64,000 bases of DNA from Nonlabens sp. (GTDB lineage: Bacteria > Bacteroidota > Bacteroidia > Flavobacteriales > Flavobacteriaceae): contig JBATVD010000039.1 in the NCBI GenBank assembly GCA_049671565.1, positions 12,329 to 76,328 of the forward strand. Reading direction: 5' to 3'. Shown here in pieces: positions 5,032 to 53,085 of this stretch. Position numbers and translations under genes: made by a program. The notes beneath the pieces are model-generated. The model was not told the DNA's origin, searched no databases, and saw only the letters and a program-made list of their open reading frames with translations. Positions within the stretch are counted from its first letter, which is position 1. Every line of letters starts with the position of its first letter.

Positions 5032-5832
5032 ATGATATCAAATCTAGGAGAACTTGCAATCAAAGCATCTATTAAGGCGGGCGCTGCGATCATGGAAGTT
5101 TATAATAAAAATGAGGCAATAGTAGATAAAAAAGCGGATGACTCACCACTTACTCAAGCAGATCTCAATTCCAATGCGGTAATCATCGATTATCTCAAAA
5201 GTACCGACATTCCCGTAATTAGTGAAGAGATCAAAAATTCCGATTACTTAGCTCGAAAAGATTGGGAGAAGTGCTGGATCGTAGATCCAATGGATGGAAC
5301 CAAAGAATTTGTCAACCGCAATGGCGAATTCACCGTCAATATTGCCTTACTGGAGAATGGGAAACTGACTATGGGAGTGATTTACGCACCTGTGTTGAAG
5401 TCCCTCTATTTTACTAGTGAAGGTATGGCAGATGCTTTCAGAGCAACGGTAGATTGGGAAAAGGGAATGAGCGTCTCTGAGATTGTGAAAGAAGCTTCAG
5501 TTTTAAAGCAGCATTCAGATAAAAATTACCTCAAGGTAGTCGCTAGTAAATCTCACTTAAATCAAGAAACTAAAGATTACATTGATCAGCTGTCTAGAAG
5601 TGACGATCGAGAATTGCAAATTGTGTCTGTAGGTAGTTCGCTCAAATTTTGTTTGGTAGCAGAAGGAACTGCTGAGGTCTACCCTAGATTTGGTCCTACA
5701 ATGGAATGGGATACTGCGGCCGGACAAGCCATATGCGAGGCAGCAGGCGTTTCTGTAACTTCTTACAAAAATAATCTACCTTTGCAATATAATAAGGAGG
5801 ATTTATATAACCCATTTTTTATAGTCAATTAG
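5032..5832 (+). CDS. cysQ: 3'(2'),5'-bisphosphate nucleotidase (PAP phosphatase), inositol-monophosphatase fold
   Basis: Motifs ISEE, WIVDPMDGTKEF and WDTAAG are characteristic of the CysQ/IMPase family. The gene sits directly upstream of cysC/D/N. Confidence 0.8.
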   Translation: MISNLGELAIKASIKAGAAIMEVYNKNEAIVDKKADDSPLTQADLNSNAVIIDYLKSTDIPVISEEIKNSDYLARKDWEKCWIVDPMDGTKEFVNRNGEFTVNIALLENGKLTMGVIYAPVLKSLYFTSEGMADAFRATVDWEKGMSVSEIVKEASVLKQHSDKNYLKVVASKSHLNQETKDYIDQLSRSDDRELQIVSVGSSLKFCLVAEGTAEVYPRFGPTMEWDTAAGQAICEAAGVSVTSYKNNLPLQYNKEDLYNPFFIVN

Positions 5833-5834
5833 CA

Positions 5835-6083
5835 ATGGATGTTACAAGGAAAAGGCATATTGCCAAAACAATTACGTGGAGAGTAATTGCGAGCGTTACT
5901 ACTTTTGCATTGGCTTTTATCTTCTTCCAAGAAGATCCAGATGCAATCACTAAAGCTTCGGGTGTAGCTATAGCAGAGTCGATTATTAAAATGGTACTTT
6001 ATTATTATCATGAACGTTTCTGGTATAAGTCAAATTTTGGTATTGAGGGCGAAAGAACAACTGAGGATGAAGGGAAAAAATAA
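5835..6083 (+). CDS. DUF2061-like small membrane protein
   Basis: 82 aa with two predicted helices. The KTITWRV...YYYHERFW pattern matches my memory of the DUF2061 signature. Confidence 0.6.
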   Translation: MDVTRKRHIAKTITWRVIASVTTFALAFIFFQEDPDAITKASGVAIAESIIKMVLYYYHERFWYKSNFGIEGERTTEDEGKK

Positions 6084-6669
6084 TATTTTCGCCACAGATT
6101 ATACAACTGAACAGCAACTTCGCATTCAAGTAAAAAAACAGAAACCTGTTCTTTTGTGGTTTACTGGACTTTCAGGGTCTGGAAAATCTACCTTAGCTCA
6201 AGCAGTTGAGAAAGATCTGCTCCGTGAGGGTTACCATACGTTTGTTTTAGACGGAGATAATGTGAGAATGGGTTTAAATAAAGGTCTCGGTTTTTCAGAA
6301 GAAGATCGGTCTGAAAACCTTAGACGAATAGGTGAGGTAAGTAAACTAATGCTTGAAGCTGGTTTGATAGTTATAGGTACTTTTGTTTCACCATTATTAC
6401 ATCAGAGGGAAAAGGTAAGAGAAATAGTGGGAGCGTCTCGCTTTCGCGAAATTTTTATTAATACTCCCCTCGAAGAGTGCGAAAAAAGGGACGTTAAAGG
6501 ATTGTATAAGAAAGCTAGAGCTGGGGAGATTCCTAATTTCACTGGTGTTGATGCTAAATATGAGATGCCTTTGAATCCAGATATAGAGGTTTTTACCACG
6601 GGAAAATCTGTTGAAGATACATCAAAAGAATTAAAAAATAAATTAATACCGTTTATAAACAATGGATAA
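6010..6669 (+). CDS. cysC: adenylyl-sulfate (APS) kinase; true start probably the ATG at 6067
   Basis: P-loop WFTGLSGSGKSTLA, then LDGDNVR and KGLYKKARAGEIPNFTGVD. The 6067 start (MKGKNNIF) overlaps the DUF2061 stop by 17 nt. Confidence 0.9.
   Translation: MNVSGISQILVLRAKEQLRMKGKNNIFATDYTTEQQLRIQVKKQKPVLLWFTGLSGSGKSTLAQAVEKDLLREGYHTFVLDGDNVRMGLNKGLGFSEEDRSENLRRIGEVSKLMLEAGLIVIGTFVSPLLHQREKVREIVGASRFREIFINTPLEECEKRDVKGLYKKARAGEIPNFTGVDAKYEMPLNPDIEVFTTGKSVEDTSKELKNKLIPFINNG
6439..6451. repeat. partial palindrome copy (CGCTTTCGCGAAA) inside cysC
   Basis: The left arm and centre of the iterated palindrome are present, and the right arm is replaced by TTT. It encodes SRFRE. Confidence 0.6.
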
Positions 6670-7567
6670 GTATTATTTAGATTATCTAAGCGAATTAGAA
6701 TCAGAGGCTATATATGTTATCAGGGAGGTGTGGGCTCAGTTCAACAAGCCTGTAATTCTTTTTAGTGGAGGGAAGGATAGCATCTTGGTGACACATTTGG
6801 CTAAAAAAGCATTTTATCCGGCAAAAATACCATTTGCCTTAATGCATGTAGACACAGGTCATAATTTTCCCGAGACCATTGCTTTTAGAAATGACATTGC
6901 AGAAAAACTCGATGTAGAATTAATTGTTGCAAAAGTCCAAGATTCTATTGATAAAGGACGCGTTGCAGAAGAAAAAGGCAAAAATGCAACCCGAAATGCT
7001 TTGCAGATAACTACTCTTTTGGATGCTATTGAAGAAAATAAGATAGATTGTGCTCTAGGAGGTGCGAGACGAGACGAGGAGAAAGCACGAGCAAAAGAAA
7101 GATTTTTTTCACATAGAGATGATTTTGGTCAGTGGGATCCAAAAAATCAGCGTCCGGAATTATGGAATATTCTTAATGGAAATCATTTTGAGGGTGAACA
7201 TTTTAGAGCTTTTCCTATTAGTAATTGGACTGAGTTAGACGTCTGGAATTACATTCATAGAGAAAACATAGAGGTGCCGAGCCTATATCTAGCACATGAA
7301 CGTAAAATGGTTTGGAGAAATGATACGTGGTTACCTTATTCTGAATATTTACAAGATGTAAAGGAAGAAGATATTGTCACAAAAAAAGTTAGGTTTAGGA
7401 CTTTAGGAGATATCACCATAACAGGAGCCATAGAATCAGACTGTGATACTACCGAAAAAATTGCCCTTGAGGTGGCGTCAATGAAGATGACAGAAAGAGG
7501 AAACCGCAGTGATGATAAAAGATCAGAATCTGCAATGGAGGATAGAAAAAAACAAGGATATTTTTAG
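6662..7567 (+). CDS. cysD: sulfate adenylyltransferase subunit 2
   Basis: PAPS-reductase-fold PP motif FSGGKDS. The conserved C-terminus is GDITITGAIES...ERGNRSDDK...MEDRKKQGYF. Confidence 0.9.
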   Translation: MDKYYLDYLSELESEAIYVIREVWAQFNKPVILFSGGKDSILVTHLAKKAFYPAKIPFALMHVDTGHNFPETIAFRNDIAEKLDVELIVAKVQDSIDKGRVAEEKGKNATRNALQITTLLDAIEENKIDCALGGARRDEEKARAKERFFSHRDDFGQWDPKNQRPELWNILNGNHFEGEHFRAFPISNWTELDVWNYIHRENIEVPSLYLAHERKMVWRNDTWLPYSEYLQDVKEEDIVTKKVRFRTLGDITITGAIESDCDTTEKIALEVASMKMTERGNRSDDKRSESAMEDRKKQGYF

Positions 7568-7576
7568 GAAAACAAC

Positions 7577-8833
7577 ATGAATTTAGATAAAAATCAATTA
7601 TTACGCTTTACTACTGCTGGTAGTGTTGATGATGGAAAAAGTACTTTAATTGGAAGGTTATTATACGACTCTAAATCGATCTTTGAAGATCAAATAGATT
7701 CCATTAAGAACACAAGTTCTCAAAAAGGTCTTGAAGATATAGACCTTGCATTATTTACGGATGGTCTGAGAGATGAGCGGGAGCAAGGAATTACTATCGA
7801 TGTTGCTTATAGATACTTTACTACTCCAAAACGTAAATTTATTATTGCGGATACACCTGGGCATATTCAGTACACTAGAAACATGGTTACTGGTGCCTCT
7901 ACTGCAAATGCTGCCCTGATACTAATTGACGCAAGACATGGAGTCATTGAGCAAACTAAGCGCCACGCATTTATTGCAAGTCTATTGAATATACCACACA
8001 TAATTGTTTGTATCAATAAGATGGACTTAGTTGATTTTAGCGAAAGTGTTTATGAACAGATTATCCAAGATTTCAATGATTTTGCTTCTAAAATGCTAAC
8101 GCGTGACGTAGCTTTTATCCCCCTAAGTGCCTTACTTGGTGATAACGTGGTTAATAGAAGTGAAAATATGCCGTGGTATCAAGCGGCTCCGTTGCTCTAT
8201 ACACTGGAGCACCTTCATATAAGTAGCGATATCAATAAGATTGATGTACGCTTCCCTATTCAAACAGTTTTGAGGCCACAACGCAAAGGGTTTGAAGACT
8301 ATCGTGGATACGCAGGGAGACTCGGTAGCGGAGTGCTTAGAGTGGGCGATGCAGTTACAGCTCTTCCGTCTGGATTCACATCTAGAGTTAAGTCAATAAA
8401 TTCAGGTGATAAAGAAGTTCAAGAAGCATTTGCACCGATGTCAATAGCAGTAACGCTGGAAGATGATATCGATATCAGCAGGGGTGGTATGATAGTACGA
8501 ACTAACAATATGCCAGAGTCCAAGCAACAATTTGATGTTATGATATGCTGGCTTAACGAGAAACCATCTCAAATAAGAAAAAAATATAAAATCATTCATG
8601 CTAGCAACGAGCAGATCTCTATGATTGCTGATTGTGTTTACAAAATTGATATTGAAACCTTGAAACGAGATAGCAATGTGGTTGAGTTTAAAATGAATGA
8701 AATTGGTAGAGTAAGTCTTAAAACCAATAAGTCAATGATGATAGATAGCTATCGAGATAATAAGTTGACTGGAAGTTTAATACTCATAGATCCTGATACA
8801 AATGAGACTGTAGCCGCTGGTATGATAGTCTAA
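7577..8833 (+). CDS. cysN: sulfate adenylyltransferase subunit 1 (GTPase), no fused APS-kinase domain
   Basis: GTPase motifs GSVDDGKST, DTPGH and NKMD. At 418 aa it stops before any CysC-like domain. Confidence 0.9.
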   Translation: MNLDKNQLLRFTTAGSVDDGKSTLIGRLLYDSKSIFEDQIDSIKNTSSQKGLEDIDLALFTDGLRDEREQGITIDVAYRYFTTPKRKFIIADTPGHIQYTRNMVTGASTANAALILIDARHGVIEQTKRHAFIASLLNIPHIIVCINKMDLVDFSESVYEQIIQDFNDFASKMLTRDVAFIPLSALLGDNVVNRSENMPWYQAAPLLYTLEHLHISSDINKIDVRFPIQTVLRPQRKGFEDYRGYAGRLGSGVLRVGDAVTALPSGFTSRVKSINSGDKEVQEAFAPMSIAVTLEDDIDISRGGMIVRTNNMPESKQQFDVMICWLNEKPSQIRKKYKIIHASNEQISMIADCVYKIDIETLKRDSNVVEFKMNEIGRVSLKTNKSMMIDSYRDNKLTGSLILIDPDTNETVAAGMIV

Positions 8834-8878: not shown

Positions 8879-9700
8879 TTGATTATGAAAAATTTTTTTG
8901 CTCTCGTAATTCTGGCGCTGTTTGTAACTTCTTGTATACCTACTTCTCGCATTACTTATCTGCAAGATAAAGAAGAGTTTCCAAAAGATTCTCTACTTAC
9001 AATTCAGAGAGTACAGAGTCCTTACAGGCTGCAAGTAGGGGATATAATAGCAATAAACATTAAGGCCCCATTTGATAGCAATTTCGTTAGTGAGTTTCAA
9101 ATTGGTTCAGCTAGAGGAGGAGGAGGTAACGCTCAGCAGGTTTTACAAGGGGGCTTATATTTTACTGGTTTTACCATTAGTAATCGTGGTACCATCAGGG
9201 TGCCTCAATTAGGTGAAATATCTGTGGTTAGTAAAACTTTGGAAGAAGTGCGTTTACAAATTGAGGCTTTATTGTTTAAAACAAATTTTAAACAAACTTC
9301 TGATATTTTTGTAGACGTAAAGCTTGAGGGTTTACGATATACTATGGTTGGTGAAGTAAATAGTCCAGGTCAATACACTATTTTGAGAGACCAAGTAAGT
9401 ATCGTCGAAGCCGTGGCAGACGGTGGTGGAGTACCAGTGACCGGAGATCTTACTTCGGTGAAAATCATACGGCAATATGAGGGTGGGATCAAAACTCATA
9501 TACTTGATCTAACATCAATTGAGGTCATAAAATCCCCTTACTATTACTTGAGACCCAATGATATGATCGTTTTTAGTCCGCTCCCTCAAAAAGCTTTGGG
9601 TGTAGGGACTACTGGACTATCCACATTTACAACGGCCATCTCCATTTTTACTACAATTATCACTACTTATTTATTAATTGACAATTTATCTAATCGATAA
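8879..9700 (+). CDS. wza: polysaccharide export outer-membrane lipoprotein (OPX, Wza-like); likely start ATG 8885
   Basis: Signal peptide with lipobox (LFVTSC). A Poly_export-like segment (YRLQVGDIIAINI) is followed by an SLBB-like segment (GEVNSPGQY). Confidence 0.8.
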   Translation: MIMKNFFALVILALFVTSCIPTSRITYLQDKEEFPKDSLLTIQRVQSPYRLQVGDIIAINIKAPFDSNFVSEFQIGSARGGGGNAQQVLQGGLYFTGFTISNRGTIRVPQLGEISVVSKTLEEVRLQIEALLFKTNFKQTSDIFVDVKLEGLRYTMVGEVNSPGQYTILRDQVSIVEAVADGGGVPVTGDLTSVKIIRQYEGGIKTHILDLTSIEVIKSPYYYLRPNDMIVFSPLPQKALGVGTTGLSTFTTAISIFTTIITTYLLIDNLSNR

Positions 9701-12164
9701 GATGCAGGACGAGGATATTAATTCATTATCTGGGATTTTTGACATACGTCAATTTTTATCTAAAGTAATAAAGCTTTGGTGGCTTTTTATTTTAGTATTT
9801 GCCATTTGTTTCTCAATAGCCTATTACCAAAACCAATTTATCCAGACCTATTATGAGGTCGAATCATTGATCACAGTTACTGATAATTCAAGCCCTGGCC
9901 TTTCAGACAATACCAGCTTGACTTTTAATTGGGGAGGGACAACAGACAAAGTAACTACCGCAATAACTAAATATAAGTCCAGATCGCATAACGAACTTGT
10001 GGTAGATGAATTACAGATATATGTAGATTATTTGAAAAAAGGGGAATATTTTGATATTGACGCTTATAATAAAACTCCTTTTAAAATTCATGTGGATACT
10101 TCAAAAGCCCAGTTAAAAGGTGTTCCGATCCAATTTAACGTGCTTGATGAAAACCGTGTTAGGATAAGTGTTGACTTTCAAAAAAACAGTGCGAGTGGAT
10201 TTAATTATTCCACAAAGGAATCAGTGAGATTAAAAACTCCGATGGGACTTTTTTCTGATGTCTACAATTTTGGAGACAAGGTTGAGACTCCTTTTATGGC
10301 ATTTGAGATCAAACGCGTGCCTGAGCAGTTTAGAAAAGGGACTTGGGATGTTTACTTCAAAGACTACTGGTCTACAGTTAAAAATTATAAAGGAATATCT
10401 TTAGAGCAAACACCATCTGGTTCATCAATATTGACACTTACGCTTACAGGGACCAACAAACTCAAGTTGATTGATTACTTGAATGCAAGCTCTTCAGTTC
10501 TAGAAAAAGCAGAGCTTCTTAGGAAAAATTTATATGCGAACAGTCAAATCAGGTATATTGATAGCGTACTTAATGCTGATCTTCCAAAACTGGAGCAAGC
10601 AGAGAAAGCCTTAGAAGATTTTCAGTCTGAAAATGGAATTGTAGATGCATCTGCACAAATGTCCCAATTAAATAGCGAGCTATCAGTTCTAGAGTTAGAA
10701 GAGAAGCAGATTGAACGATCTAAAAAATATTACTATTCCCTCGAGGAGTTTTTGGAGAATAATACAGATTATACAAAAATTCAAGTACCTTCTGTAGTTG
10801 GGATAAATGAATCAAACATTGAACAATATGTAAGTCAGATCATCGAGAAGTCTCGAGAAAGAAATGTCAAACAATATTCTGTCAAAGAGAATACGTTTGA
10901 AATGGCTCGTTTAGATAGAGATATCGAAAGTTTGAGAAGACTGATCTTAGCAAACATTACGAGCTCCACAGAACTTCTCAATCAGGATTTGATTAGTAAT
11001 TTAGAAGAGCAAACTGAGGTAAAGCAGGAAATTAAAACACTTCCAGAGGAGCAGCAAGTGTTTTTAAGAATACAAAGAAACTTTGAGACTAGAAAATCGG
11101 AATTCAACAATTTGCTTAGAAGAAGATCCCAGGCGGAACTAGCTAAAGCATCAAATGTTTCGGACATTTATGTAATAGATAAAGCAAAAGATACTAACCA
11201 ATCAGGAAGGTCAAAAGATTCGACAGTTAACTATTTGTTGGCGCTTCTATTAGGATTGACAATTCCAACATTAGTGGCTTTTCTTCTTACATTATTTGAT
11301 AATTATATATATACTCCAAAACAAATAGAACGACTAACTACTATTCCCGTGCTTGGAGTTGTAGGAAAAGTAGATCACCCCAATAATCTAATCGTATACG
11401 AAAAGTCGAAATCTGCAGCCGCTGAAGCTTTTAGAGGATTAAGGTCGAGCCTTCACTTTATGTATGACCAAGATTCTCAAACCAATTCTAGGACTATCAT
11501 GGTTACGAGTAGTGTGAGTGGTGAAGGGAAAACTTTTTCCAGTATAAATCTAGCGTCTGTGTTTGCTTTAAGTGGTAAGAAAACAGTACTAGTAGGTTTA
11601 GATTTGAGAAAGCCAAAAATATTTGATGATTTTGATATTACAAATGACGTAGGTGTTTCTAATTACTTGGTGAAGGATTGTACCCTGCAGCAAATGACTA
11701 AGACAACTAAGATCAACAATCTTGATGTGATCCTATCTGGACCAGTTCCTCCTAATCCGAGTGAATTAATTTTGTCCGCTAAGATGAAGGAATTGATGAC
11801 GATTTTAAAGCAGGAGTACGATTATGTGATTTTGGATACGCCTCCTCTAGGACTGGTAGCAGATTCTATAGAATTAGCTAAGTATGCTGATGTGACACTT
11901 TATATGGTTAGACAAAAGTATACTAAAAAGATGATGCTTGATATTATCAACGAGAAGTATGCAAGAAAAGAGATAGATCGTGTCAGTATTTTATTCAATT
12001 ATTATAAGGATACAAAAGGTTACGGCTATGGTTATGGCTATGGTTACGGCTATGGTTATGGTTATGGCTATGGAGTCTATTCCAATGGGTATCATGAGCA
12101 AGACAGAGCTAGGGGCTTCAAATATGTTGTGAAAAAAATCCTAAAGCGTCTAATAAAAAAATAG
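9678..12164 (+). CDS. wzc: chain-length determinant / BY-tyrosine kinase (PCP-2a, Wzc-like); likely start ATG 9702
   Basis: N-terminal TM helix plus a long coiled-coil periplasmic region and a second TM helix. The cytoplasmic domain has Walker A SSVSGEGKTF, Walker B ILDTPP and a C-terminal Tyr cluster (GY)9. Confidence 0.85.
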   Translation: MTIYLIDKMQDEDINSLSGIFDIRQFLSKVIKLWWLFILVFAICFSIAYYQNQFIQTYYEVESLITVTDNSSPGLSDNTSLTFNWGGTTDKVTTAITKYKSRSHNELVVDELQIYVDYLKKGEYFDIDAYNKTPFKIHVDTSKAQLKGVPIQFNVLDENRVRISVDFQKNSASGFNYSTKESVRLKTPMGLFSDVYNFGDKVETPFMAFEIKRVPEQFRKGTWDVYFKDYWSTVKNYKGISLEQTPSGSSILTLTLTGTNKLKLIDYLNASSSVLEKAELLRKNLYANSQIRYIDSVLNADLPKLEQAEKALEDFQSENGIVDASAQMSQLNSELSVLELEEKQIERSKKYYYSLEEFLENNTDYTKIQVPSVVGINESNIEQYVSQIIEKSRERNVKQYSVKENTFEMARLDRDIESLRRLILANITSSTELLNQDLISNLEEQTEVKQEIKTLPEEQQVFLRIQRNFETRKSEFNNLLRRRSQAELAKASNVSDIYVIDKAKDTNQSGRSKDSTVNYLLALLLGLTIPTLVAFLLTLFDNYIYTPKQIERLTTIPVLGVVGKVDHPNNLIVYEKSKSAAAEAFRGLRSSLHFMYDQDSQTNSRTIMVTSSVSGEGKTFSSINLASVFALSGKKTVLVGLDLRKPKIFDDFDITNDVGVSNYLVKDCTLQQMTKTTKINNLDVILSGPVPPNPSELILSAKMKELMTILKQEYDYVILDTPPLGLVADSIELAKYADVTLYMVRQKYTKKMMLDIINEKYARKEIDRVSILFNYYKDTKGYGYGYGYGYGYGYGYGYGVYSNGYHEQDRARGFKYVVKKILKRLIKK
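12018..12074 (+). repeat. in-frame hexanucleotide repeat (GGYTAYGGYTAT-type) encoding (Gly-Tyr)x9 at the Wzc C-terminus
   Basis: Codons read directly: ggt tac ggc tat ggt tat ... gga. Confidence 0.95.
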
Positions 12165-12324
12165 GGAACTTGCAATCGGTTTGGAAGATCTTAGAATTGG
12201 TTTCCTTAGATATAGAATATTTAACAGGTCTAAATAAAATCTCAAACTGACCAGTTTAGAAATTGTTTTTGTCGTGATGAAAACTTGGTCACTAATTAAT
12301 TTTTATTAGGTAAATTAAAAAATA

Positions 12325-14392: not shown

Positions 14393-14676
14393 AAATCTAA
14401 TTTTATTATTTCCGAATCATAAATTATCGGTGGTCAGAAGAGTTTGAAAGGCCATTTGGTAATTCGGTTATTTGAATTTTTACGGTTTTTCTCAACCTGT
14501 CTTTTCCTGTCTCAAATTTAAAGACACAGCACTTACAATTTGATTTGAAAATATTGTGTAAGCTAGCCTTAGTATTCAAGATGTTATCCAGTATTGTTTT
14601 TTGATATTCCTATGAATAAGCATATCCGTATTTATTATAGATCATATGTTGATGAAACTTGAGTGTTTGATTGATG

Positions 14677-14930: not shown

Positions 14931-14953
14931 TAAATTGATAGAAGAATTAAAAA

Positions 14954-44054: not shown

Positions 44055-44362
44055 CTTGTAAAAAAAAATGCTGTACATTTCAAATAAGTCAAAAAAAAGT
44101 CAGTCACAATTTTTTTGAGCAATGTCATCAGCTTCGTTAAAATAAAAAACAGCATTTTATTTGTATACCAATAATATTTAACAACGTAACCAGCTCAAGT
44201 TTTAAAGCTTTGATAACAAGAAACAAGGCTGCAAGATTATCATTCCTCTCTTAATTTGAAGGGGAACACTCTATTGGGAAAACAAATGATTACAACTTTT
44301 ATAATAGATAGGGTGTGAAAAGTAAATATATTGCAACTTGGTTTTTACTATAAAGAGAATAC

Positions 44363-45166: not shown

Positions 45167-46491
45167 TGTTTAATTTTTTAAAATATCTACAACCTACTAG
45201 TTACTTTCGCTTAAAGCGAAAACAAAAAGGTAGCATATATCCTCACATAGAACAAATCAAACCTTCATTACTTAGTAAAGTGCCTAAAGATGTTTCTTAT
45301 CAGGACTCAAAGACTCAAGATTATGACCAGTCATGGAGGTTGATTCAAAAAGGTTATGTAGGTGATGGTGAAGCTTATAAGCAGTTTTCAAATCTACCTG
45401 TTGTAGATGAGTATAGATTTATACGCAAAAATTTCCATCCAGTTTGGGTGGTGTATGTTTTGGTAGTTAGGTTGCTGTCCTTTAAGAACCCAGTTCGTGA
45501 GATCTCCGCTTTCGCGAAAGCGAGATCCATAAAAAGAGTCAACGAGCATAAGGAACCCTTTGAATATCCTGAATATCAAACCTTCAACAGCTCCTTGATA
45601 GAGAAAAAGCCTCTTGTATCCATCGTGATTCCTACACTAAATAGATATCCTCATCTGAAGGACGTCATGGCAGATTTAGAAAAGCAGGACTACCAAAATT
45701 TTGAAGTGATCGTAGTGGATCAATCAGAACCTTTTCAACGTACATTTTATGAGGATTTTGATTTAGACATAAATTTGATTTATCAAGAAGAAAAAGCGCT
45801 TTGGTTAGCTCGAAATACCGCTATTCAGAAAAGTAAAGGTGATTTTATACTTTTATTTGATGATGATTCAAGAGTAGATCCAGATTGGATCAGTCAGCAT
45901 ATAAAGACACTGGATTTTTTCAAAGCTGATTTATCATCAGGAGTCTCTATTTCTACTCAAGGCGCAAAAGTTCCTGCTAGCTATGCGCATTTTGGGATCA
46001 GTGGTCAGCTGGATACGGGTAACGTTTTACTTAAAAAAGAAATTTTTAGGGATATCGGTTTATTCGATCGCCAGTTTGAAAAACAACGCATGGGAGATGG
46101 TGAGTTTGGCCTTAGAGCCTATCTAGCTGGCTATCTAAATATATCTAACCCATACGCCAAGCGTTTGCATCTAAAAGTAGGTTCAGGAGGACTGCGACAA
46201 ATGGGATCTTGGGATGGCTTCAGACCAAAAAAATGGTTTGACCCACGACCTATTCCAAGTGTCGTATACCTATTTCGTAAATATCACGGAAATTCTGCGG
46301 CGAGGTGGGCTCTTCTAAAAACGGTTCCCAGTTCAATTATGCCCTATAGATATAAAAGTAGCTCCATTATGATGTTATTAGGTGGTTTAATAAGTATATT
46401 TTTGTTACCAATTGTTCTATTACAGGTCAGAAAATCTTGGAAGCTAGCTACTCAAAAGCTAAATGAAGGTGAAAAAATTGAGAAGTTATGA
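45166..46491 (+). CDS. glycosyltransferase family 2 with ~145-aa N-terminal extension and C-terminal TM helix
   Basis: Motifs VSIVIPTLNRYPHL...VVDQS...FDDDS. The TAATG stop/start overlap with the upstream gene supports the long N-terminus. Confidence 0.75.
   Translation: MFNFLKYLQPTSYFRLKRKQKGSIYPHIEQIKPSLLSKVPKDVSYQDSKTQDYDQSWRLIQKGYVGDGEAYKQFSNLPVVDEYRFIRKNFHPVWVVYVLVVRLLSFKNPVREISAFAKARSIKRVNEHKEPFEYPEYQTFNSSLIEKKPLVSIVIPTLNRYPHLKDVMADLEKQDYQNFEVIVVDQSEPFQRTFYEDFDLDINLIYQEEKALWLARNTAIQKSKGDFILLFDDDSRVDPDWISQHIKTLDFFKADLSSGVSISTQGAKVPASYAHFGISGQLDTGNVLLKKEIFRDIGLFDRQFEKQRMGDGEFGLRAYLAGYLNISNPYAKRLHLKVGSGGLRQMGSWDGFRPKKWFDPRPIPSVVYLFRKYHGNSAARWALLKTVPSSIMPYRYKSSSIMMLLGGLISIFLLPIVLLQVRKSWKLATQKLNEGEKIEKL
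45205..45221. repeat. degenerate relative of the palindrome (TTTCGCTT-A-AAGCGAAA)
   Basis: Two 8-nt inverted arms separated by one base, read directly. It encodes FRLKRK in the GT2 N-terminal extension. Confidence 0.6.
45507..45522. repeat. iterated palindrome copy (16 bp) inside a GT2 CDS, codon phase 2 (reads SAFAKAR)
   Basis: Read directly; the codons are tcc gct ttc gcg aaa gcg aga. Confidence 0.95.
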
Positions 46492-47489
46492 GGCAGGGAA
46501 TTGAAATAGTTAATTATTGTCCCGCAATTGAGGAGCAACATTATTCTTTTGCCACAAGAATGTTTGGAAATCGTCGTAAACGTAGAAATCCCGAATATTT
46601 ATATTGGAAATTTAGAGGGAAGCAGGGCGAGGAACTAACGTCGTTTAAAATAGCCTTATCTAACGGGAAGATAGTTGGCCAGTTAGGTTTGATTCCTTGT
46701 CAATTAAATCTCGATGGTCAGATAGTTGACTCGCAGTGGGCTTGTGATTTAGTAGTTGATCCAGATTTTAGAGGTAAGGGCGTTGCAAAATTATTATATC
46801 AAGCGGCTCATGATCAAAAAGCTATAACTTTAGGTAGTGACCCTAGTCCATCGGCAGAGATATCAATGCTACGCGCGGGTTATAAAAAGTTGAAAAGCTC
46901 GAATAAGCAATTTGTGCCTATATTTTTAGGCTTGCCCCTAAGGATGAAAGGTGTGAATATTAAAATTTTAGATAAAGTAAGAAATCCATTCTTGAAACTG
47001 TACAGCTCAAGTAAGTATAAAAGTGATTTTGAAGAACTGGACATTATCGAGGCAAAACATGAAAAAATCTTCCAGTTAGAGAAAGACAAACAAATTTTTA
47101 TAGATAGGGGTAATTCATTTAAAAATTGGCGGTTTAGACCCTTTAAAGATTATTATCCTGGTGTAAAGCTATACGGTCTCACAGGTACAGGAACGTATTA
47201 TTCAGGCTACCACCATGGTGATGTATATTTTATTACAGACTTTTTTATAACTCACAGTGTACACTTCAAAAAGATTATTAATCACATTTTAGGTTATATT
47301 CCAGATAATATTGAAAGAATACGGTTCCAAAATAACACTAATAATGAACTTCTTGGTTCAAAATTGAATACTATTAAATACCGCACGGAAACCTCCATTA
47401 TTTATTATACAGAAGACGTAGAAATTGATAAGAAAGTAAAGAATCAATACTTTTATTATTCACATCAAGATTCCGATGAAAATGTCTAG
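46488..47489 (+). CDS. GNAT-family acyltransferase
   Basis: Motif A-like VVDPDFRGKGVAKLLYQAA. Confidence 0.6.
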   Translation: MRQGIEIVNYCPAIEEQHYSFATRMFGNRRKRRNPEYLYWKFRGKQGEELTSFKIALSNGKIVGQLGLIPCQLNLDGQIVDSQWACDLVVDPDFRGKGVAKLLYQAAHDQKAITLGSDPSPSAEISMLRAGYKKLKSSNKQFVPIFLGLPLRMKGVNIKILDKVRNPFLKLYSSSKYKSDFEELDIIEAKHEKIFQLEKDKQIFIDRGNSFKNWRFRPFKDYYPGVKLYGLTGTGTYYSGYHHGDVYFITDFFITHSVHFKKIINHILGYIPDNIERIRFQNNTNNELLGSKLNTIKYRTETSIIYYTEDVEIDKKVKNQYFYYSHQDSDENV

Positions 47490-48321
47490 TAAAAAGGTGG
47501 TCATAACGTGGGATTTTGATGGGCCTATTGGTATTATTAACGCTTCATATCCATATAATTTTCATTATAGTAACCTAGAGAGGGAAATAAATAATGCTAA
47601 AGCTATTCTCGATATTCTGGATGAGTATGATGTAAAAAGTTGTTTTGCAATAACTGGATTTTCTGCAGAGGAAGGGAAGTATCCATATACTTTCCCAGAA
47701 TTTATCAATGAGATATTTGAAAGAGGACATGAAGTTGCTTCGCACTCTTGGAGACATGAATGGTCTTCTATTTTTCAATTGAATCAAATAGATAAAAGCT
47801 TAAAACGCAGTAAAGAATCACTAAAGATGGCGATCAATCATAAACAGGAAATTTATGGCTTTGTACCGCCTCATAATAGACCTATGACTTGGCTCAGGCG
47901 TGGAGCTTTCAGTTGGGGTGATCGTGGCGTATATCCATTTTTCAAAGCAGCTGATAATGAGAGTATCATTAACCTTTTGAAAAAAAATAATTATAAGTGG
48001 TTGCGAGTTTCTTATAAAAACATTTTCCAAAAAATACGCCTTCAGTCCAGAAACATTACCGGTAGAATACATCATTATAAGGGAATCATGCTGCTTGAAA
48101 ACCACCACACAGGTTTTGGAAAAAAAGTCACCAAGCATATTTTGGAAACTAACTACGAGACTTATATTCTAAGTGCTCACCCTTTGATGTTTGATTTTAA
48201 AGATAAGACAGAAAATAAAGAGAATTTTATTTACTTACTAGACACCCTTAAAAATTCCACTCAGGACATTGAGTTTGTAAGACCTATTGATTTACTTAAT
48301 ATGTATAAGGGTGGCAATTAA
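47476..48321 (+). CDS. polysaccharide deacetylase (CE4/NodB homology domain)
   Basis: Motifs TWDFDGP (DD-type motif 1 variant) and HEVASHSWRHE (HxxxxH metal motif). Confidence 0.7.
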   Translation: MKMSSKKVVITWDFDGPIGIINASYPYNFHYSNLEREINNAKAILDILDEYDVKSCFAITGFSAEEGKYPYTFPEFINEIFERGHEVASHSWRHEWSSIFQLNQIDKSLKRSKESLKMAINHKQEIYGFVPPHNRPMTWLRRGAFSWGDRGVYPFFKAADNESIINLLKKNNYKWLRVSYKNIFQKIRLQSRNITGRIHHYKGIMLLENHHTGFGKKVTKHILETNYETYILSAHPLMFDFKDKTENKENFIYLLDTLKNSTQDIEFVRPIDLLNMYKGGN

Positions 48322-49420
48322 AGAGAAGAAAATTTTAATTCTAACATCAGAATTTCCACCTCAACCAGGTGGTATAGGCCAGCATGCGCTAGATTTAGCC
48401 AAACAATTAGAAAAAAGACATCAAGTCATAGTCATTGCAGATCAGCGATCTAATGATGGTGTGGAGGAACTCAATTTTGATGCTGATCTAGACTTTAAAG
48501 TAATAAGAATAAAACGTTTAGATAAAATCGCTTTCACTTATGCTTTTAGATTAAAAGAGACTTTGAATCATTTGAGTAAGGTAGATCTAGTGATGACATC
48601 GGGAAAATTTTCTCTTTGGCAAATCCATATGATCAAATTGCGCTTCCCTTCAAAGCCCGTGATTGCTATTATTCATGGATCTGAAGTGCTTCTACCATCT
48701 AAAATCACCAAAAAGTTGACAGATAGAGCCTTAGAGAAAGCAGATTGTGTAGTGGCGGTTTCACACTATACACAAAGTTTAGTCAATCACTTGAAAATTA
48801 AATCCATGAAAGTGATTCCTAATGGAATCACTAATATTCCCGACTATAAAAAAAATGTGATAGATTCCAATGAAATTCATTTGCTGACCGTAGGTAACCT
48901 CACTCAGCGTAAAGGGCAACACAATGTAATTGAAGCCTTGCCTCTGATTTTAAAAGAATTCCCACAAGTACACTACCATTGTGTTGGACTTCCTACAAAT
49001 CTAGAACAGCTTCAAGAGCTGGCGGAAAAACTTCAAGTTAGTGAGGCTGTCACTTTTCACGGTCGTTTGAGTGAGCGAGATAAGCAAAAATTTTACGAAA
49101 ACTCCCATATTTTTCTGATGTTGAGTGAGCGTACGGAATCAGGTGACGTTGAGGGTTTTGGTATAGCAATATTAGAGGCAAATGCTAATGGGCTTCCAGC
49201 AATAGGTAGTTCTGGTAGTGGAATAGAGGATGCTATAAAATCAGGACACTCCGGCTATTTGGTGAATCCACATGATAAAAACGATATCGTAGAAGCACTC
49301 CGAAACATTCTAAAAGATTACCCAAGTTTTGAAAAGCAATCCTATACCTGGTCAAAAAGTTTCAAATGGGAAGTTTTAATTCAAGACTACCATCAACTTT
49401 TAAAGCATTTATGCGCATAG
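48287..49420 (+). CDS. glycosyltransferase family 4 (start uncertain: TTG 48287 or GTG 48311)
   Basis: Motifs LTSEFPPQPGGIG...EGFGIAILEANANGLPAIGSSGSGIEDAI. Confidence 0.8.
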   Translation: MIYLICIRVAIKEKKILILTSEFPPQPGGIGQHALDLAKQLEKRHQVIVIADQRSNDGVEELNFDADLDFKVIRIKRLDKIAFTYAFRLKETLNHLSKVDLVMTSGKFSLWQIHMIKLRFPSKPVIAIIHGSEVLLPSKITKKLTDRALEKADCVVAVSHYTQSLVNHLKIKSMKVIPNGITNIPDYKKNVIDSNEIHLLTVGNLTQRKGQHNVIEALPLILKEFPQVHYHCVGLPTNLEQLQELAEKLQVSEAVTFHGRLSERDKQKFYENSHIFLMLSERTESGDVEGFGIAILEANANGLPAIGSSGSGIEDAIKSGHSGYLVNPHDKNDIVEALRNILKDYPSFEKQSYTWSKSFKWEVLIQDYHQLLKHLCA

Positions 49421-50547
49421 TAATCATTTCACATACGGAGCATTATAAAAGCACTGAAGGTGTAATCAAGGGATGGGGTTCAACAATACGTGAACTGAAT
49501 CATGTCGCTGAAATTTGTGATGAGTTGATTCATCTAGCTCCACTACATAATGATTTACCACCAGATAGCAGCTTAAGTTATACATCTAATAAAATCCAAT
49601 TTGTTGCTTTGAAGCCTTCAGGCGGTAAAGGTTTGAAGAAGTTAAGTATCATACAAACTGCTCTTCACAATTTAAAGTTGATTCACAAGTACACTAAGTC
49701 AGCTGATTATGCACAATTTCGAGCCCCAACAGGAATGGGTCTTTATGTGCTTCCCTATTTGAAACTGTTTAGATCTAATTCATACTGGATAAAATATGCG
49801 GGTAACTGGATTGACCCAGAAATGCCTCTTGGCAATCGTATACAAAAATATTGGTTGAAAAATATCGATCGTAAGGTAAAGGTAACGATCAACGGAAGAT
49901 GGGAAAGTAATCCACGATTCATCCCTTTCGAAAACCCTAGTTTGACGAGTGAAGAACATCTTATAGGTAAAGATATTATTAATGATAAAATAAAGAATTC
50001 TCCCGATAAATTCAGACTCATTTTTGTTGGAAGCCTTAATAGGCATAAAGGGGTTCATCTTATAATCGATACATTTATAAAGCTGAAAAATAAATCTTGT
50101 TTTTCCGAAATATTATTTGTTGGCGACGGAGCAGAGCGAAAAGTATTTGAAAAAAGTGCCAAACAAATTGATTTTCCAATTCATTTTCTAGGCCATTGTT
50201 CTAAAGAAAAAGTAGCAGAACTACTTGCGAGAAGCCATGTATTATTGCTTCCCTCAAAAAGCGAGGGTTTTCCTAAGGTAGTTGGTGAAGCGATGAATTT
50301 TGGATGTATTCCGATAGTTTCCGATGTCTCATGTTTAAGCGATTATATAAAAACAGGAGAGAATGGTTTAGTATTGGACGATCTGTCAAGTGACGCCATA
50401 TGGAGTGCTTTGGAGACCATAAGTAAATGGAGTTTGTCAGATTATCATATGGCTTTAAAGAAAAATGCAGGTCTAGCTTCTAGATTTACTTACCAACACT
50501 ATAACTTTGCACTAAAGTCAAAAATATTGAGGTCGGACAAAAGATAG
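49366..50547 (+). CDS. glycosyltransferase family 4; likely start ATG 49411
   Basis: Motif SEGFPKVVGEAMNFGCIPIVSDVSCLSDYI. The 49411 start gives a 10-nt overlap with the upstream stop. Confidence 0.75.
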   Translation: MGSFNSRLPSTFKAFMRIVIISHTEHYKSTEGVIKGWGSTIRELNHVAEICDELIHLAPLHNDLPPDSSLSYTSNKIQFVALKPSGGKGLKKLSIIQTALHNLKLIHKYTKSADYAQFRAPTGMGLYVLPYLKLFRSNSYWIKYAGNWIDPEMPLGNRIQKYWLKNIDRKVKVTINGRWESNPRFIPFENPSLTSEEHLIGKDIINDKIKNSPDKFRLIFVGSLNRHKGVHLIIDTFIKLKNKSCFSEILFVGDGAERKVFEKSAKQIDFPIHFLGHCSKEKVAELLARSHVLLLPSKSEGFPKVVGEAMNFGCIPIVSDVSCLSDYIKTGENGLVLDDLSSDAIWSALETISKWSLSDYHMALKKNAGLASRFTYQHYNFALKSKILRSDKR

Positions 50548-50647
50548 CATGTTTTAAAATCTTTAGAAGATGCATTTTGATGACTTTTAAGCCCTAAGAA
50601 AAGTAAACGTTCACAACTCGTTTTATTAATAGATACCTACTATAAGG

Positions 50648-52060
50648 ATGCCCAAAATAGAAAACCTTCCCTATCCTATAGTAATACTTATTCACATCAT
50701 TCTTGGAGCTGCTATTGTAACTGTTCCTTTTCTAGCCAAAATTCTTGTTTTAGTTGTAATGGGATATTTGTTGCTTAGAATTTTAAATAACTCTGATCGC
50801 AATAACGAGGTTCTGCTGGCATGTATTTACTTTGTCTGTGTAGAAGTTTTCTTTAAGATGACCAAAGCCATGCCCCTTTATGAAATGGGTAAATATTTTG
50901 TCTTGATTTGTGTTGTTTTAGGAATTTTACTGAAAGGATTTTCTTTAAAGTCTTCATTCTATGTCATTTATATTCTAACGTATATCCCTGCTATTTTTGT
51001 TGCAGCAGAAAATATAGCAATTGATGAGAGCCTCCGTAAATCCATAGCCTTCAACCTCGCTGGACCTGTCATATTGGGCGTTGTTGCCATTTACTGTTAT
51101 AACAGAAAAATTTCTAGAGAGAAATTACTAAACCTGTTTGGACTAGGGGCAGCTGCTTTAGCCATGATGGCTGTTTATGTGGTTTTTTCGGCTCCTAGTG
51201 TAGAAGAAATTGATTTCAATGCAGCTTCAAATGCTACAGCCTCTGGTGGGTATGGACCTAATCAAGTCTCTACCGCATTTGGTATCGGTATATTTTTGAC
51301 ATTTGCGAGATTTATTCTTATTAAAAAGCTATCCCATAACTTGATAGACCTCAGTCTTTTTTTAATATTTACTTACAGAGGATATTTAACTTTTTCAAGA
51401 GGAGGGGTTTTAACTGCATTTGTAATGATAGCGGCTTTCATATTTACAATAACCATTTTATATAGAAGTGGGTTTCGAAAATCTTTCATACCCAAATTTA
51501 TTTTAATAGGTGCAGGGGTCGTTTTGGCTTTTGCATATACCAGTGTAGTGACAGGAGGAATGGTGGACAATAGATATGCTAATAAAAATTCATTAGGAGA
51601 GGAAAAGGAAGACTTGACCACAGGTAGAGGTGAATTGGCAAGTTTGGAAATACAGGCTTTTTTAGAAAATCCAGTTTTAGGCATCGGTGCCGGGATGTCT
51701 AAGTATTATAGACTTAGAAAAGCAGGAATAGGAGGAGCTTCACATAATGAATTGACGCGGACTCTTTCCGAACATGGATCAATAGGGGTTTTGTCTATTG
51801 CAATGTTGGTTTTTATACCCTTGTTTTATCGATTGGGAGATCGATCCAACATATTTTTTTATAGTTTTTTAATATTTTGGTTTGCCACCATCAACCATTC
51901 CGCAATGCGTATCGCGGCACCTTCTTTTATTTATGGTTTGGCTTTGCTGAGATTCTTACCCCCAGATAAAAAATCTTTAAAAGATGAAGAGGGAAAAGAT
52001 GAATTTGTAGAGCTTATTAAAGAAAGAAAACTACTTTCACCAAGGCGCTTAAAGACATGA
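50648..52060 (+). CDS. O-antigen ligase / polymerase family membrane protein (Wzy_C domain)
   Basis: About 10-12 hydrophobic helices. A FSRGGVL block and a loop with GIGAG...ASHNELTRTLSEHGSIG (HNxxL...E.G hallmark) are present. Confidence 0.7.
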   Translation: MPKIENLPYPIVILIHIILGAAIVTVPFLAKILVLVVMGYLLLRILNNSDRNNEVLLACIYFVCVEVFFKMTKAMPLYEMGKYFVLICVVLGILLKGFSLKSSFYVIYILTYIPAIFVAAENIAIDESLRKSIAFNLAGPVILGVVAIYCYNRKISREKLLNLFGLGAAALAMMAVYVVFSAPSVEEIDFNAASNATASGGYGPNQVSTAFGIGIFLTFARFILIKKLSHNLIDLSLFLIFTYRGYLTFSRGGVLTAFVMIAAFIFTITILYRSGFRKSFIPKFILIGAGVVLAFAYTSVVTGGMVDNRYANKNSLGEEKEDLTTGRGELASLEIQAFLENPVLGIGAGMSKYYRLRKAGIGGASHNELTRTLSEHGSIGVLSIAMLVFIPLFYRLGDRSNIFFYSFLIFWFATINHSAMRIAAPSFIYGLALLRFLPPDKKSLKDEEGKDEFVELIKERKLLSPRRLKT

Positions 52061-53085
52061 AATTGGACATACTGTACATTGGCAATAAATTAAGTGTTCA
52101 TGGCTACAACGTGAGCTATATGGAAACTTTGGGGCCCTACTTGGAAAAAGAGGGGCATCAAGTGACTTACGCTTCAGATAAAAAAAATAAAATTTCCAGA
52201 TATATAGATATGTTGGTAACGCTTTCGCGAAAGCGTTATTCCGTAGACCTCGTGCTCATTGACACCTATAGTACATTGAATTACTGGTATGCAGTAAGTG
52301 TTGCGAAATTATGCCAACAATATGATATTCCCTATATACCTATTCTCCACGGTGGAAATTTGCCTCATCGTGCTAAATCATCAAGAAGTAGTTTTAAAAA
52401 ATTGATTGAAAGTGCATTTGTAGCCGTTTGTCCCAGTAAATATTTACAGGAATCGCTATCTCAGCTCGGTTTTTCTAATTTTGAGATTATCAAAAATACG
52501 GTGGCTATTAGTGATTATGATTTTAAGGCAAGAAAGAGTGCTCAGCCCAATTTATTATGGGTGCGTTCATTCTCACAGATTTACAATCCTGAGATGGCTG
52601 TTAAAGTATTGAAGTTTGTAAAGGCCAAGTATTCTAATGCCACCTTATGCATGATAGGTCCAGATAAAGATGGCTCGCTGGAACGAACTAAAAAATTAGC
52701 CCAAGGTTTAGATTTAAATGTGGAATTTACTGGGAAAATGACAAAGGAGGCCTGGAGAGCCAAAAGTCTAGATTTTGATATTTTTATTAATACCACCCAC
52801 TTTGACAACCTGCCTATAAGCCTTATAGAGTCTATGGCACTAGGACTTCCCATCGTGTCAACTAATGTAGGTGGCATTACTTACCTAATCAACGACGGCA
52901 GCACTGGGCTTTTAGTGGGTGATAAGGATGTGGATCATATGTGCGAGTCTATAGAAATGCTCATTCAATCACCAGAGCTTACCGCTTCAATCAGTGAAAA
53001 TGCAAGACTTGAAGCAGAGAAGTACGGATGGAACATCGTAAAAGAAGAATGGAAAAGGTTATTGTCTAAAGTTCCCAAGCGATGA
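52057..53085 (+). CDS. glycosyltransferase family 4
   Basis: Motif FDNLPISLIESMALGLPIVSTNVGGITYLI. It contains the longest palindrome copy. Confidence 0.8.
   Translation: MKLDILYIGNKLSVHGYNVSYMETLGPYLEKEGHQVTYASDKKNKISRYIDMLVTLSRKRYSVDLVLIDTYSTLNYWYAVSVAKLCQQYDIPYIPILHGGNLPHRAKSSRSSFKKLIESAFVAVCPSKYLQESLSQLGFSNFEIIKNTVAISDYDFKARKSAQPNLLWVRSFSQIYNPEMAVKVLKFVKAKYSNATLCMIGPDKDGSLERTKKLAQGLDLNVEFTGKMTKEAWRAKSLDFDIFINTTHFDNLPISLIESMALGLPIVSTNVGGITYLINDGSTGLLVGDKDVDHMCESIEMLIQSPELTASISENARLEAEKYGWNIVKEEWKRLLSKVPKR
52217..52238. repeat. iterated palindrome copy (22 bp TAACGCTTTCGCGAAAGCGTTA) inside a GT4 CDS, codon phase 1 (reads TLSRKRY)
   Basis: Read directly. Confidence 0.95.

Follow-up and report, generated by a model that had tools for sequence, protein, structure and literature searches.

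Does a flavobacterium make a sulfated polysaccharide of its own? Algae are usually named as the source of the ocean's sulfated polysaccharides, and research on flavobacteria treats them as organisms that break these polymers down. The question is raised by a 48-kb locus (positions 5032–53085) in a 64,000-nucleotide (nt) stretch of DNA from Nonlabens sp. (GenBank assembly GCA_049671565.1, contig JBATVD010000039.1; the whole stretch is called the window here). Its gene content makes it probable that the region serves the synthesis of a surface polysaccharide and includes a sulfate-activation module; the polysaccharide would be sulfated at several sites, exported by an ATP-binding cassette (ABC) transporter, and O-acylated in the periplasm.

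The open reading frame (ORF) listing, together with Pfam and NCBIfam profile scans of every window ORF of at least 100 amino acids (aa), reveals 44 co-directional genes on the + strand that fill the locus, with short or negative spacers between them (Table 1). A 4-nt overlap is present at eight gene junctions; six of the eight have an ATG start, giving ATGA with the overlapping stop codon. The GC content is 33–38% within the locus versus 38–41% in the flanks. The first-pass annotation of the window had described about 45 packed co-directional genes with many ATGA overlaps, in the order cysQ-DUF2061-cysC-cysD-cysN followed by wza/wzc/wzm/wzt/wzt, and the scans confirm this description and this order. 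The glycosyltransferases number 15, one fewer than the approximate count given there: seven are GT2-like and eight GT4-like by Pfam.

The head of the locus encodes all four enzymes of a sulfate-activation cycle, CysD, CysN, CysC, and CysQ, each recognisable as a family member. The longest cysC ORF starts at 6010; the likely start is 6067, which gives a 200-aa protein matching the orthologues in two related loci, L088 and L089. The profile scans detected no cysH, cysI, cysJ, or sulfite reductase among the window ORFs. A genome scan with cysN confirmed 598 relatives, and the best 80 were taken as Bacteroidota loci for neighbourhood counts. CysQ is linked to cysN in 54 of these 80 loci and cysC in 71, and a low-sensitivity test for cysH near cysN gave one weak CysH-like match. 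The arrangement cysQ-DUF2061-cysC-cysD-cysN is widely conserved and sits in polysaccharide gene neighbourhoods. A dedicated supply of 3′-phosphoadenosine 5′-phosphosulfate (PAPS) through CysDN and CysC, with removal of the by-product 3′-phosphoadenosine 5′-phosphate (PAP) by CysQ, had been proposed for the locus and is borne out by every computational test run. Of DUF2061, a small membrane protein, the window and its close relatives carry a single copy; many Flavobacteriaceae (L003, L007, L011, and others, at ~8.0–8.4 kb) carry two in tandem.

Five sulfotransferases are interleaved with the glycosyltransferases, and a sixth lies on the upstream flank, as the first-pass annotation had it. All six combine a 5′-phosphosulfate-binding (PSB)-like loop near the N-terminus with a 3′-PB-like R-x7/8-S motif, spaced as is usual for the superfamily (about 80–120 residues). 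The five ORFs of the locus had been credited with exact PSB and R-x7-S patterns; the motifs are present in all of them, and ORF 17382 departs from the pattern with FNKTGTTT and R-x8-S. Pfam gathering scores are passed by ORFs 17382, 18018, 43197, and 44363 and by the flanking ORF 677–1450, and not by ORF 38806 (20.0 bits versus 27), for which the support comes from its motifs, its homologues, and the predicted fold. None of the six has a transmembrane (TM) segment or a signal-like N-terminus, and they are therefore predicted to be cytoplasmic. Orthologues of the protein encoded at 43197–44054 are present in Aequorivita, Mangrovimonas, Mesonia, Psychroserpens, and Lacinutrix.

The protein below the Pfam threshold was followed through its homologues and its model. 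The longest ORF starts at 38806 and the likely true start is 38827; the product carries the motifs SARSGTSW and RDPFDLIQS. Its family comprises 424 homologues, with at least 49% identity among the 120 listed and at least 14 flavobacterial genera, and many of the NCBI-named members carry the name "sulfotransferase". A profile of the family gave no significant match in a sequence search of the PDB (CurM sulfotransferase, E 0.41). The AlphaFold (AF2) model built on 30 homologues has a predicted local distance difference test score (pLDDT) of 82.6 and a predicted template modelling score (pTM) of 0.85, and the 50 best Foldseek PDB matches listed are all PAPS sulfotransferases (E from 2e-5, TM-score 0.3–0.48). 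The model thus predicts a sulfotransferase fold. With the surrounding glycosyltransferases as context, the sulfotransferases of the locus would transfer sulfate from PAPS to a carbohydrate acceptor.

The export genes named in the first-pass annotation are all identified: Wza and Wzc, and a single inner-membrane exporter, Wzm with two Wzt ATPases. Wzm itself has no Pfam match; its homologues at 62–77% identity match PF01061 and are named "lipopolysaccharide transport system permease" by the Joint Genome Institute (JGI). The best NCBIfam matches of the Wzt ATPases are TagH and Wzt/RfbE. The nucleotide-binding domains of Wzt1 and Wzt2 are 78% identical and their C-terminal domains 31% identical, which suggests that the twin ATPases have two chain-end specificities. 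The close relatives L087, L088, and L089 have a single Wzt, and L089 has a 279-aa sulfotransferase in the place of wzt2; Wzt_C matches are on record for the Wzt orthologues in L086 and L087. PAPS is available only in the cytoplasm, and sulfate must therefore be added before the glycan is exported; this constraint agrees well with the ABC route, where chains are completed before they leave the cell. Near the other end of the locus, the protein encoded at 50648–52060 could be a WaaL-type ligase or a polymerase. The Wzy_C domain is common to WaaL ligases, PglL-type O-oligosaccharyltransferases, and polymerases, and Pfam does not separate them.

Two features of the export genes stand apart from these assignments. 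The C-terminus of Wzc (12105–12164) is a GY-repeat run (GYGYGYGYGYGYGYGYGYG), an unusually regular tyrosine cluster for the tail of a bacterial tyrosine kinase (BY-kinase). Between wzt1 and wzt2 lies a 561-nt non-coding gap (14393–14953) with no notable ORF, no Rfam match, and one copy of the palindrome described below; a decayed wzm/wzt copy was considered as its origin and rejected, as blastx against the window proteins gave nothing below E 0.5.

The predicted acylation module consists of two membrane acyltransferases of the MBOAT family, each with a downstream partner that has a single TM helix at its N-terminus, in keeping with the O-acylation annotated for the locus. Single-sequence PDB searches gave no match for either partner, and the partner encoded at 33216–34265 has no Pfam match either. 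The partner at 42321–43196 has 351 relatives in a search of 1.8 billion representative proteins; in 81 homologues G55, S57, and H273 are invariant and D270 is at least 90% conserved, corresponding to the SGNH signature Ser...D-x-x-H. Its AlphaFold model has a pLDDT of 96.7, and the best Foldseek matches are DltD (E 5e-6, prob 1.0), followed mainly by SGNH/GDSL esterases. Polytopic MBOAT proteins followed by an N-terminally anchored, extracytoplasmic protein of the SGNH fold are likewise found in the pairs DltB/DltD, AlgI/AlgJ-AlgX, and PatA/PatB. Unlike the Dlt system, the window has no DltA, DltC, or DltX, and contains the pair twice. The window ORFs include neither an AMP-binding nor a PP-binding protein, and for this lack of DltA and DltC a Dlt D-alanylation system was rejected. 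MBOAT 2 and its partner are therefore predicted to form an AlgI/AlgJ- or PatA/PatB-like periplasmic O-acylation pair.

Read from protein families and topology, the genes suggest the following order of events. CysD and CysN would make adenosine 5′-phosphosulfate (APS) and CysC would convert it to PAPS; CysQ would hydrolyse PAP, and the sulfotransferases would therefore escape product inhibition. A glycan on a lipid carrier (undecaprenyl-linked) would be started by an initiating phosphoglycosyltransferase that must be encoded elsewhere, and extended on the cytoplasmic side of the membrane by as many as 15 glycosyltransferases, with unusual sugars supplied through the DegT aminotransferase, WbqC, two epimerase/dehydratases, the AsnB-like amidotransferase, hexapeptide and GNAT acyltransferases, and the deacetylase. 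Before export, the five soluble sulfotransferases would add ester sulfate at several positions. Wzm/Wzt would then carry the finished sulfated glycan across the inner membrane, and the two Wzt proteins, with their divergent C-terminal domains, may recognise two different chain ends. In the periplasm, the two MBOAT and SGNH/DltD-like pairs would O-acylate the glycan, most likely by O-acetylation. Finally, the product would either pass through Wza/Wzc as a capsule or exopolysaccharide (EPS) or be ligated to lipid A-core by the Wzy_C protein.

Several observations weigh against this account, and they concern the completeness of the gene set, the export route, and the number of products. Neither an initiating phosphoglycosyltransferase (Bac_transf/WbaP or WecA type) nor a Wzx flippase (Polysacc_synt/MOP family) was found among the window ORFs, and there is no sulfate transporter in the window; the claim of a self-contained locus is thus unsupported. 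Wzy_C alongside Wza/Wzc usually marks the Wzx/Wzy route and not the ABC route, which makes the export route ambiguous. Both Wzt_C matches (E 1.5e-3 and 8.5e-3) lie below the gathering score of 30.4 bits. Gaps of 267–561 nt interrupt the locus, and with a promoter-like stretch before gene 44363 they mark several transcription units, which possibly serve more than one product. The acceptor specificity of a sulfotransferase is not readable from sequence, and the literature searches gave no chemical evidence of glycan sulfate for this organism or its relatives.

The promoter-like stretch was located by comparison with L082, an 83%-identical relative. The ~50 nt directly upstream of the sulfotransferase gene 44363 (44310–44362) are near-identical to positions ~11140–11188 of L082, and the remainder of the ~300-nt gap has diverged between the two; the conserved stretch is probably an internal promoter or regulatory site. 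A scan for sigma-70 promoters and terminators gave 83 matches versus 71 expected from shuffles, no signal above that background; the scan does not model Bacteroidota promoters, and its result was not used.

Comparison with relatives divides the locus into a conserved head (cys and export genes), a middle that varies in a serotype-like manner, and a 3′ core block shared among flavobacterial genera. The identity of CysN to GTDB species representatives reaches 75% at most, with Psychroflexus halocasei as the best match. L088 and L089 share with the window the ABCF gene and cysQ-DUF2061-cysC-cysD-cysN-wza-wzc-wzm-wzt, and then diverge: in L089 wzt is followed by sulfotransferase (ST)-DegT-ST-ST-WbqC-epimerase, and in L088 by ST-FdtA-FdtA-acetyltransferase-...-DegT. 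Flavobacterium sp. CS20 has wza-wzc-wzm-wzt-ST-ST. The 3′ half is 61–88% identical in L082, which is without the second MBOAT pair. Synteny comparison, a check proposed with the first-pass annotation, found the 3′ block AsnB-GT4-ST-GT4-(MBOAT-SGNH)-ST-GT2 (~445 aa)-GT4-GT4-Wzy_C-GT4 in four other genera, as far as the fetched sequence reaches: in Aequorivita sediminis, Mangrovimonas aestuarii, Winogradskyella helgolandensis, and Psychroflexus tropicus.

Sulfotransferase ORFs also recur near cysN. With an iterated hidden Markov model (HMM), they were found within 10 kb of cysN in 21 of the 80 Bacteroidota loci, and all ten of those sampled match Pfam sulfotransferase families, eight above the gathering score. 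The iterated HMM was required, plain tblastn and phmmer with the window sulfotransferases having found almost no sulfotransferases in the related loci. In Marinirhabdus, Lutibacter, and the Ulvibacter and Algicola metagenome-assembled genomes (L011, L025, L014, and L017; ~11.3–13.6 kb), a Wzx flippase (Polysacc_synt_3) lies directly after cysN; in Marinirhabdus and Lutibacter it is followed by DegT-WbqC-ST-GT2, and in the Ulvibacter and Algicola genomes sulfotransferase ORFs are located downstream as well. The export module after cysN (8879–16192 in the window) therefore appears to be swapped between lineages, Wzx in some and wza-wzc-wzm-wzt(-wzt) in others.

Two differences from relatives concern single modules. 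The pair of MBOAT 2 and its DltD-like partner (40894–43196) is absent from L082 (8823–10858), where the GT4 gene abuts the sulfotransferase gene; one acylation module was recently gained or lost. In Aequorivita sediminis (L084, 12253–13490), an insertion sequence (IS) element (HTH_Tnp_1 and rve) occupies the position of the GNAT and deacetylase genes of the window.

The same comparison bears on whether the 48 kb make one product. The locus had been annotated as making, multiply sulfating, O-acylating, and exporting one complex heteroglycan; genes for each step are present, and the single glycan is an assumption. Two or more adjacent glycan loci are a possibility that we take seriously, while leaning against it. 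The first would make an ABC-dependent glycan from the cys, wza-wzc, wzm-wzt, DegT-ST-ST-WbqC, and GT2 genes, and the second, the 3′ block from AsnB to Wzy_C-GT4, would make a different, also sulfated glycan; candidates are an O-antigen, either polymerised by Wzy or attached by a ligase, and a protein O-glycan. The 3′ block of Aequorivita sediminis lies ~60 kb from the wzm-wzt locus of the same genome, and in this species and in Mangrovimonas aestuarii (L084 and L085) a Bac_transf initiator gene directly follows the last GT4 gene of the block. Both the separation of the block and the variation of the middle region between close relatives, which keep both ends, tell against the claim of one heteroglycan. 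Division into two loci would likewise accommodate the internal gaps and the conserved promoter-like stretch, the two Wzt proteins with different C-terminal domains, and the relatives in which the DegT-WbqC-ST-GT2 segment has Wzx right after cysN. The 44 genes are nevertheless co-directional and contiguous between the same housekeeping neighbours as in relatives (ABCF upstream in L088 and L089, FAD oxidase downstream in L082), they share a single PAPS module and a single export set, and the window has no second initiator or flippase that would make a second system independent. A locus for a sulfated surface polysaccharide remains our preferred reading.

The identity of the product as the O-antigen of lipopolysaccharide (LPS), in place of a capsule or EPS, is a separate matter. 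Export through Wzm/Wzt with Wzy_C as a WaaL-type ligase to lipid A-core would be the classic ABC-dependent O-antigen set, as it comes without Wzx, and both the JGI name of the Wzm homologues and the serotype-like variable middle agree with it; Wza and Wzc would then serve another polymer or be accessory. Wza and a full BY-kinase Wzc are, however, located between cysN and wzm and are kept there in relatives, which points to export as a capsule or EPS, and a Pfam Wzy_C match does not tell ligases from polymerases. We regard an O-antigen as rather unlikely. That the cys genes serve ordinary sulfur assimilation, with the sulfotransferases acting on lipids, pigments, or small metabolites and the polysaccharide left unsulfated, is very improbable: many bacteria do use CysDN and CysC for assimilatory PAPS reduction, the acceptor of a sulfotransferase is unpredictable from sequence, and Bacteroides has a cysDNC-linked steroid sulfotransferase, but the five sulfotransferases here are interleaved with glycosyltransferases, several with overlapping starts, other genera keep this mixed order, the operon has cysQ linked to it, cysH, cysI, and cysJ are missing from the window and almost wholly from the vicinity of cysN in the 80 loci, and clusters of the same gene logic in Vibrio and Cobetia make sulfated capsules.

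A sulfated surface polysaccharide, the reading that we prefer, has described counterparts outside the phylum. Rhizobial NodH with NodPQ and the sulfation of LPS and K polysaccharide (LpsS/KPS) in Sinorhizobium also rely on dedicated CysDN/CysC paralogues that supply PAPS to a carbohydrate sulfotransferase acting on a surface or secreted glycoconjugate; there, a single sulfotransferase acts on a lipo-chitooligosaccharide or LPS, outside any 40-gene polysaccharide assembly locus. Closer in gene content are the capsule clusters of Vibrio sp. KMM 8419 (PMC11641403) and Cobetia marina KMM 1449 (PMC11766843), which combine PAPS genes, sulfotransferases, glycosyltransferases, and an ABC exporter, and the capsules of which are proven to be sulfated by nuclear magnetic resonance (NMR). 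PAPS genes and sulfotransferases in a polysaccharide cluster have been called a hallmark of sulfated polysaccharide synthesis (PMC11641403), and the window locus has this gene content. Like the window, both clusters have their own cysN/C and cysD (in Cobetia also cysQ), an ABC exporter, many glycosyltransferases, and sulfotransferases, which number one to three there; the Vibrio cluster also has an acyltransferase. They differ from it in using KpsMTED and KpsSC (Kdo-lipid-primed group 2 capsules) in place of Wzm, two Wzt, Wza, BY-kinase Wzc, and Wzy_C; five sulfotransferases, the MBOAT/DltD-like pairs, and membership of the Bacteroidota set the window apart from these Gammaproteobacteria. Their products are chemically proven; that of the window locus is predicted.

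The synechan xss cluster of Synechocystis PCC 6803, the cyanobacterial case analysed by genetics, comprises eight glycosyltransferases and two sulfotransferases of different subfamilies; gene count roughly matches sugar and sulfate stoichiometry, and the sulfotransferases act in the cytoplasm on the lipid-linked unit (PMC8205485). It is Wzx/Wzy-dependent and plasmid-borne, has its own regulators, and contains no cysDN, cysC, or cysQ, unlike the window with its ABC exporter and no Wzx. The authors state that sulfotransferase genes are unseen in other bacterial EPS clusters (PMC8205485), a remark that shows how thinly the field is described. In the open-access literature we found no paper on a sulfotransferase-bearing polysaccharide locus in Flavobacteriaceae; a Lacinutrix genome comparison goes no further than listing an APS kinase, a putative sulfotransferase, and a PAP phosphatase from which "sulfated materials" might arise. 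The first-pass annotation overstated how under-described the system is: clusters with PAPS genes, sulfotransferases, and an ABC exporter have been published, as has synechan, and NCBI already names many of these flavobacterial proteins "sulfotransferase". New here are the phylum, for which no prior description was found, the unusually large number of sulfotransferases, and the core conserved across the family; the gene logic is already published.

From the distribution of these genes, flavobacteria with the core cluster probably produce sulfated glycans as well as eat them. A further step, which we offer tentatively and rate as rather unlikely, is that marine Flavobacteriaceae share a modular, family-wide locus with which the whole group makes one conserved surface glycan, heavily sulfated and acylated; in the genome studied here, the twin Wzt ATPases would sort two differently capped, possibly sulfate-capped, chains. 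If these readings are correct, the sea would have a bacterial source of sulfated polysaccharide in its Flavobacteriaceae. Bacteria could then account for some of the marine sulfated-glycan pool and for some of the selection that favours sulfatase-rich degradation loci, and the surface charge of these abundant bacteria, their metal binding, and their dealings with phages and grazers would have to be rethought. The five sulfotransferases and their hundreds of homologues (two families searched) would be candidate carbohydrate sulfotransferases for biotechnology.

Table 1. Predicted genes of the locus and the flanking sulfotransferase, with positions in the window.
Feature	Position	Strand	Evidence
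Flanking sulfotransferase (Gal-3-O/Sulfotransfer_2 type)	677–1450	-	Gal-3-O_sulfotr E 2e-14
cysQ, 3′(2′),5′-bisphosphate nucleotidase (PAP removal)	5032–5832	+	Inositol_P E 2e-47; TIGR01331 equivalog 264.6 bits, cut-off 228.8
DUF2061 small membrane protein	5835–6083	+	PF09834 E 4e-15; beside cysC in 31 of 80 related loci
cysC, APS kinase	6067–6669	+	APS_kinase E 4e-64
cysD, ATP sulfurylase small subunit	6662–7567	+	PAPS_reduct E 8e-44; 94–96% identity to L088/L089
cysN, ATP sulfurylase GTPase subunit	7577–8833	+	GTP_EFTU and GTP-eEF1A_C
wza, outer-membrane polysaccharide export protein (OPX)	8879–9700	+	Poly_export and SLBB
wzc, polysaccharide co-polymerase (PCP-2a)/BY-kinase	9678–12164	+	Wzz, GNVR, AAA_31; 2 TM
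wzm, ABC-2 permease of glycan exporter	12325–13164	+	NCBIfam Wzm/RfbD E 2.5e-15, below equivalog cut-off; 5 TM-like segments
wzt1, ABC ATPase with Wzt_C-like C-terminal domain	13157–14392	+	ABC_tran E 2.5e-24; NCBIfam Wzt/TagH-like
wzt2, paralogous ABC ATPase	14954–16192	+	ABC_tran
DegT-family sugar aminotransferase	16312–17385	+	Pfam E 1e-86
Sulfotransferase (Sulfotransfer_4)	17382–18011	+	Pfam E 1.3e-23; PDB 9kf1 sulfotransferase E 5e-5; no TM
Sulfotransferase (Sulfotransfer_1), 50-aa N-terminal extension	18018–19190	+	Pfam E 6.7e-9, above gathering score; motifs YPKSGSTV, REQIDLIAS
WbqC-like protein	19187–19876	+	Pfam E 4e-55
NAD-dependent epimerase/dehydratase	19873–20874	+	Pfam E 2e-33
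Four GT2	20871–21851, 22119–23000, 22997–23878, 23900–24790	+	Glycos_transf_2
346-aa protein with faint GT-B hint only	24787–25827	+	No Pfam match at E<0.01; Glyco_trans_4_4 E 0.21
GT2	26147–27061	+	Pfam E 4e-20
Two GT4	27062–28243, 28250–29371	+	Glycos_transf_1
NAD-dependent epimerase/dehydratase (nucleotide-sugar modification)	29361–30383	+	Pfam E 1e-57
GT4	30432–31598	+	Pfam E 2e-34
MBOAT membrane acyltransferase, copy 1	31771–33207	+	MBOAT E 4e-28; 7 TM-like segments
N-terminally anchored partner of MBOAT 1	33216–34265	+	One N-terminal TM; weak N-terminal similarity to 42321; kept beside MBOAT in L082
GT2_4/GT92-like glycosyltransferase	34412–35413	+	Glyco_tranf_2_4 E 2e-11
Hexapeptide-repeat acyltransferase (cytoplasmic)	35417–35998	+	Hexapep E 1e-6
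Asparagine-synthase-like amidotransferase, start of 3′ core block	36055–37449	+	Asn_synthase E 4e-7; orthologues in L082, L084, L085, L090
GT4	37737–38840	+	Pfam
Putative sulfotransferase, family mostly missed by Pfam	38827–39675	+	Pfam sub-threshold E 9e-4; AF2 fold
GT4	39720–40904	+	Pfam E 6e-33
MBOAT membrane acyltransferase, copy 2	40894–42318	+	Pfam E 8e-26; 63% identical to copy 1
DltD-like SGNH-fold partner of MBOAT 2, N-terminally membrane-anchored	42321–43196	+	AF2, Foldseek, and conserved residues
Sulfotransferase (Sulfotransfer_3)	43197–44054	+	Pfam E 8.5e-17
Sulfotransferase (Sulfotransfer_3)	44363–45166	+	Pfam E 5e-11
GT2, 441 aa, conserved in core block	45166–46491	+	Pfam E 6e-20
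GNAT acetyltransferase	46488–47489	+	Pfam
Polysaccharide deacetylase	47476–48321	+	Pfam
Two GT4	48287–50547	+	Pfam E 3e-38 and 8e-28
Wzy_C-domain membrane protein, O-antigen ligase or polymerase-like	50648–52060	+	Wzy_C E 1e-13; ~10 TM; conserved in L082, L084, L085
GT4, last gene of locus	52057–53085	+	Pfam

The borders of the locus are formed by genes of other kinds. Upstream, on the opposite strand, lie genes for an ABC-F protein, a methyltransferase, an ABC ATPase, and the sixth sulfotransferase; downstream, a convergent FAD oxidase gene (53105–54514) is followed by genes for peptidylprolyl isomerases, MoxR, and aconitase. The flanking sulfotransferase has weak similarity to heparan sulfate 6-O and 2-O sulfotransferases and adjoins the ABC ATPase and an O-methyltransferase, and its link to the locus is putative. 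Rfam and transfer RNA scans of the whole window gave no match. A mobile-element or prophage origin was rejected, as the locus carries neither an integrase gene nor genes of phages; the one transposase fragment, a truncated DDE ORF (DDE_Tnp_1_3), is located at 63536–63856, near the end of the window and well outside the locus.

A 16-bp perfect palindrome, CGCTTTCGCGAAAGCG, is present in nine copies in the window (seven of them exact), versus 0.01 expected, at positions 2848, 14678, 21926, 23150, 37539, 45507, 52220, 54914, and 60588. The copies sit in intergenic gaps and within ORFs, and their flanking sequences are dissimilar. The palindrome is absent from 84 other fetched loci and occurs at the same relative positions in the 83% relative (L082 and L083), and it looks like a lineage-specific highly iterated palindrome.

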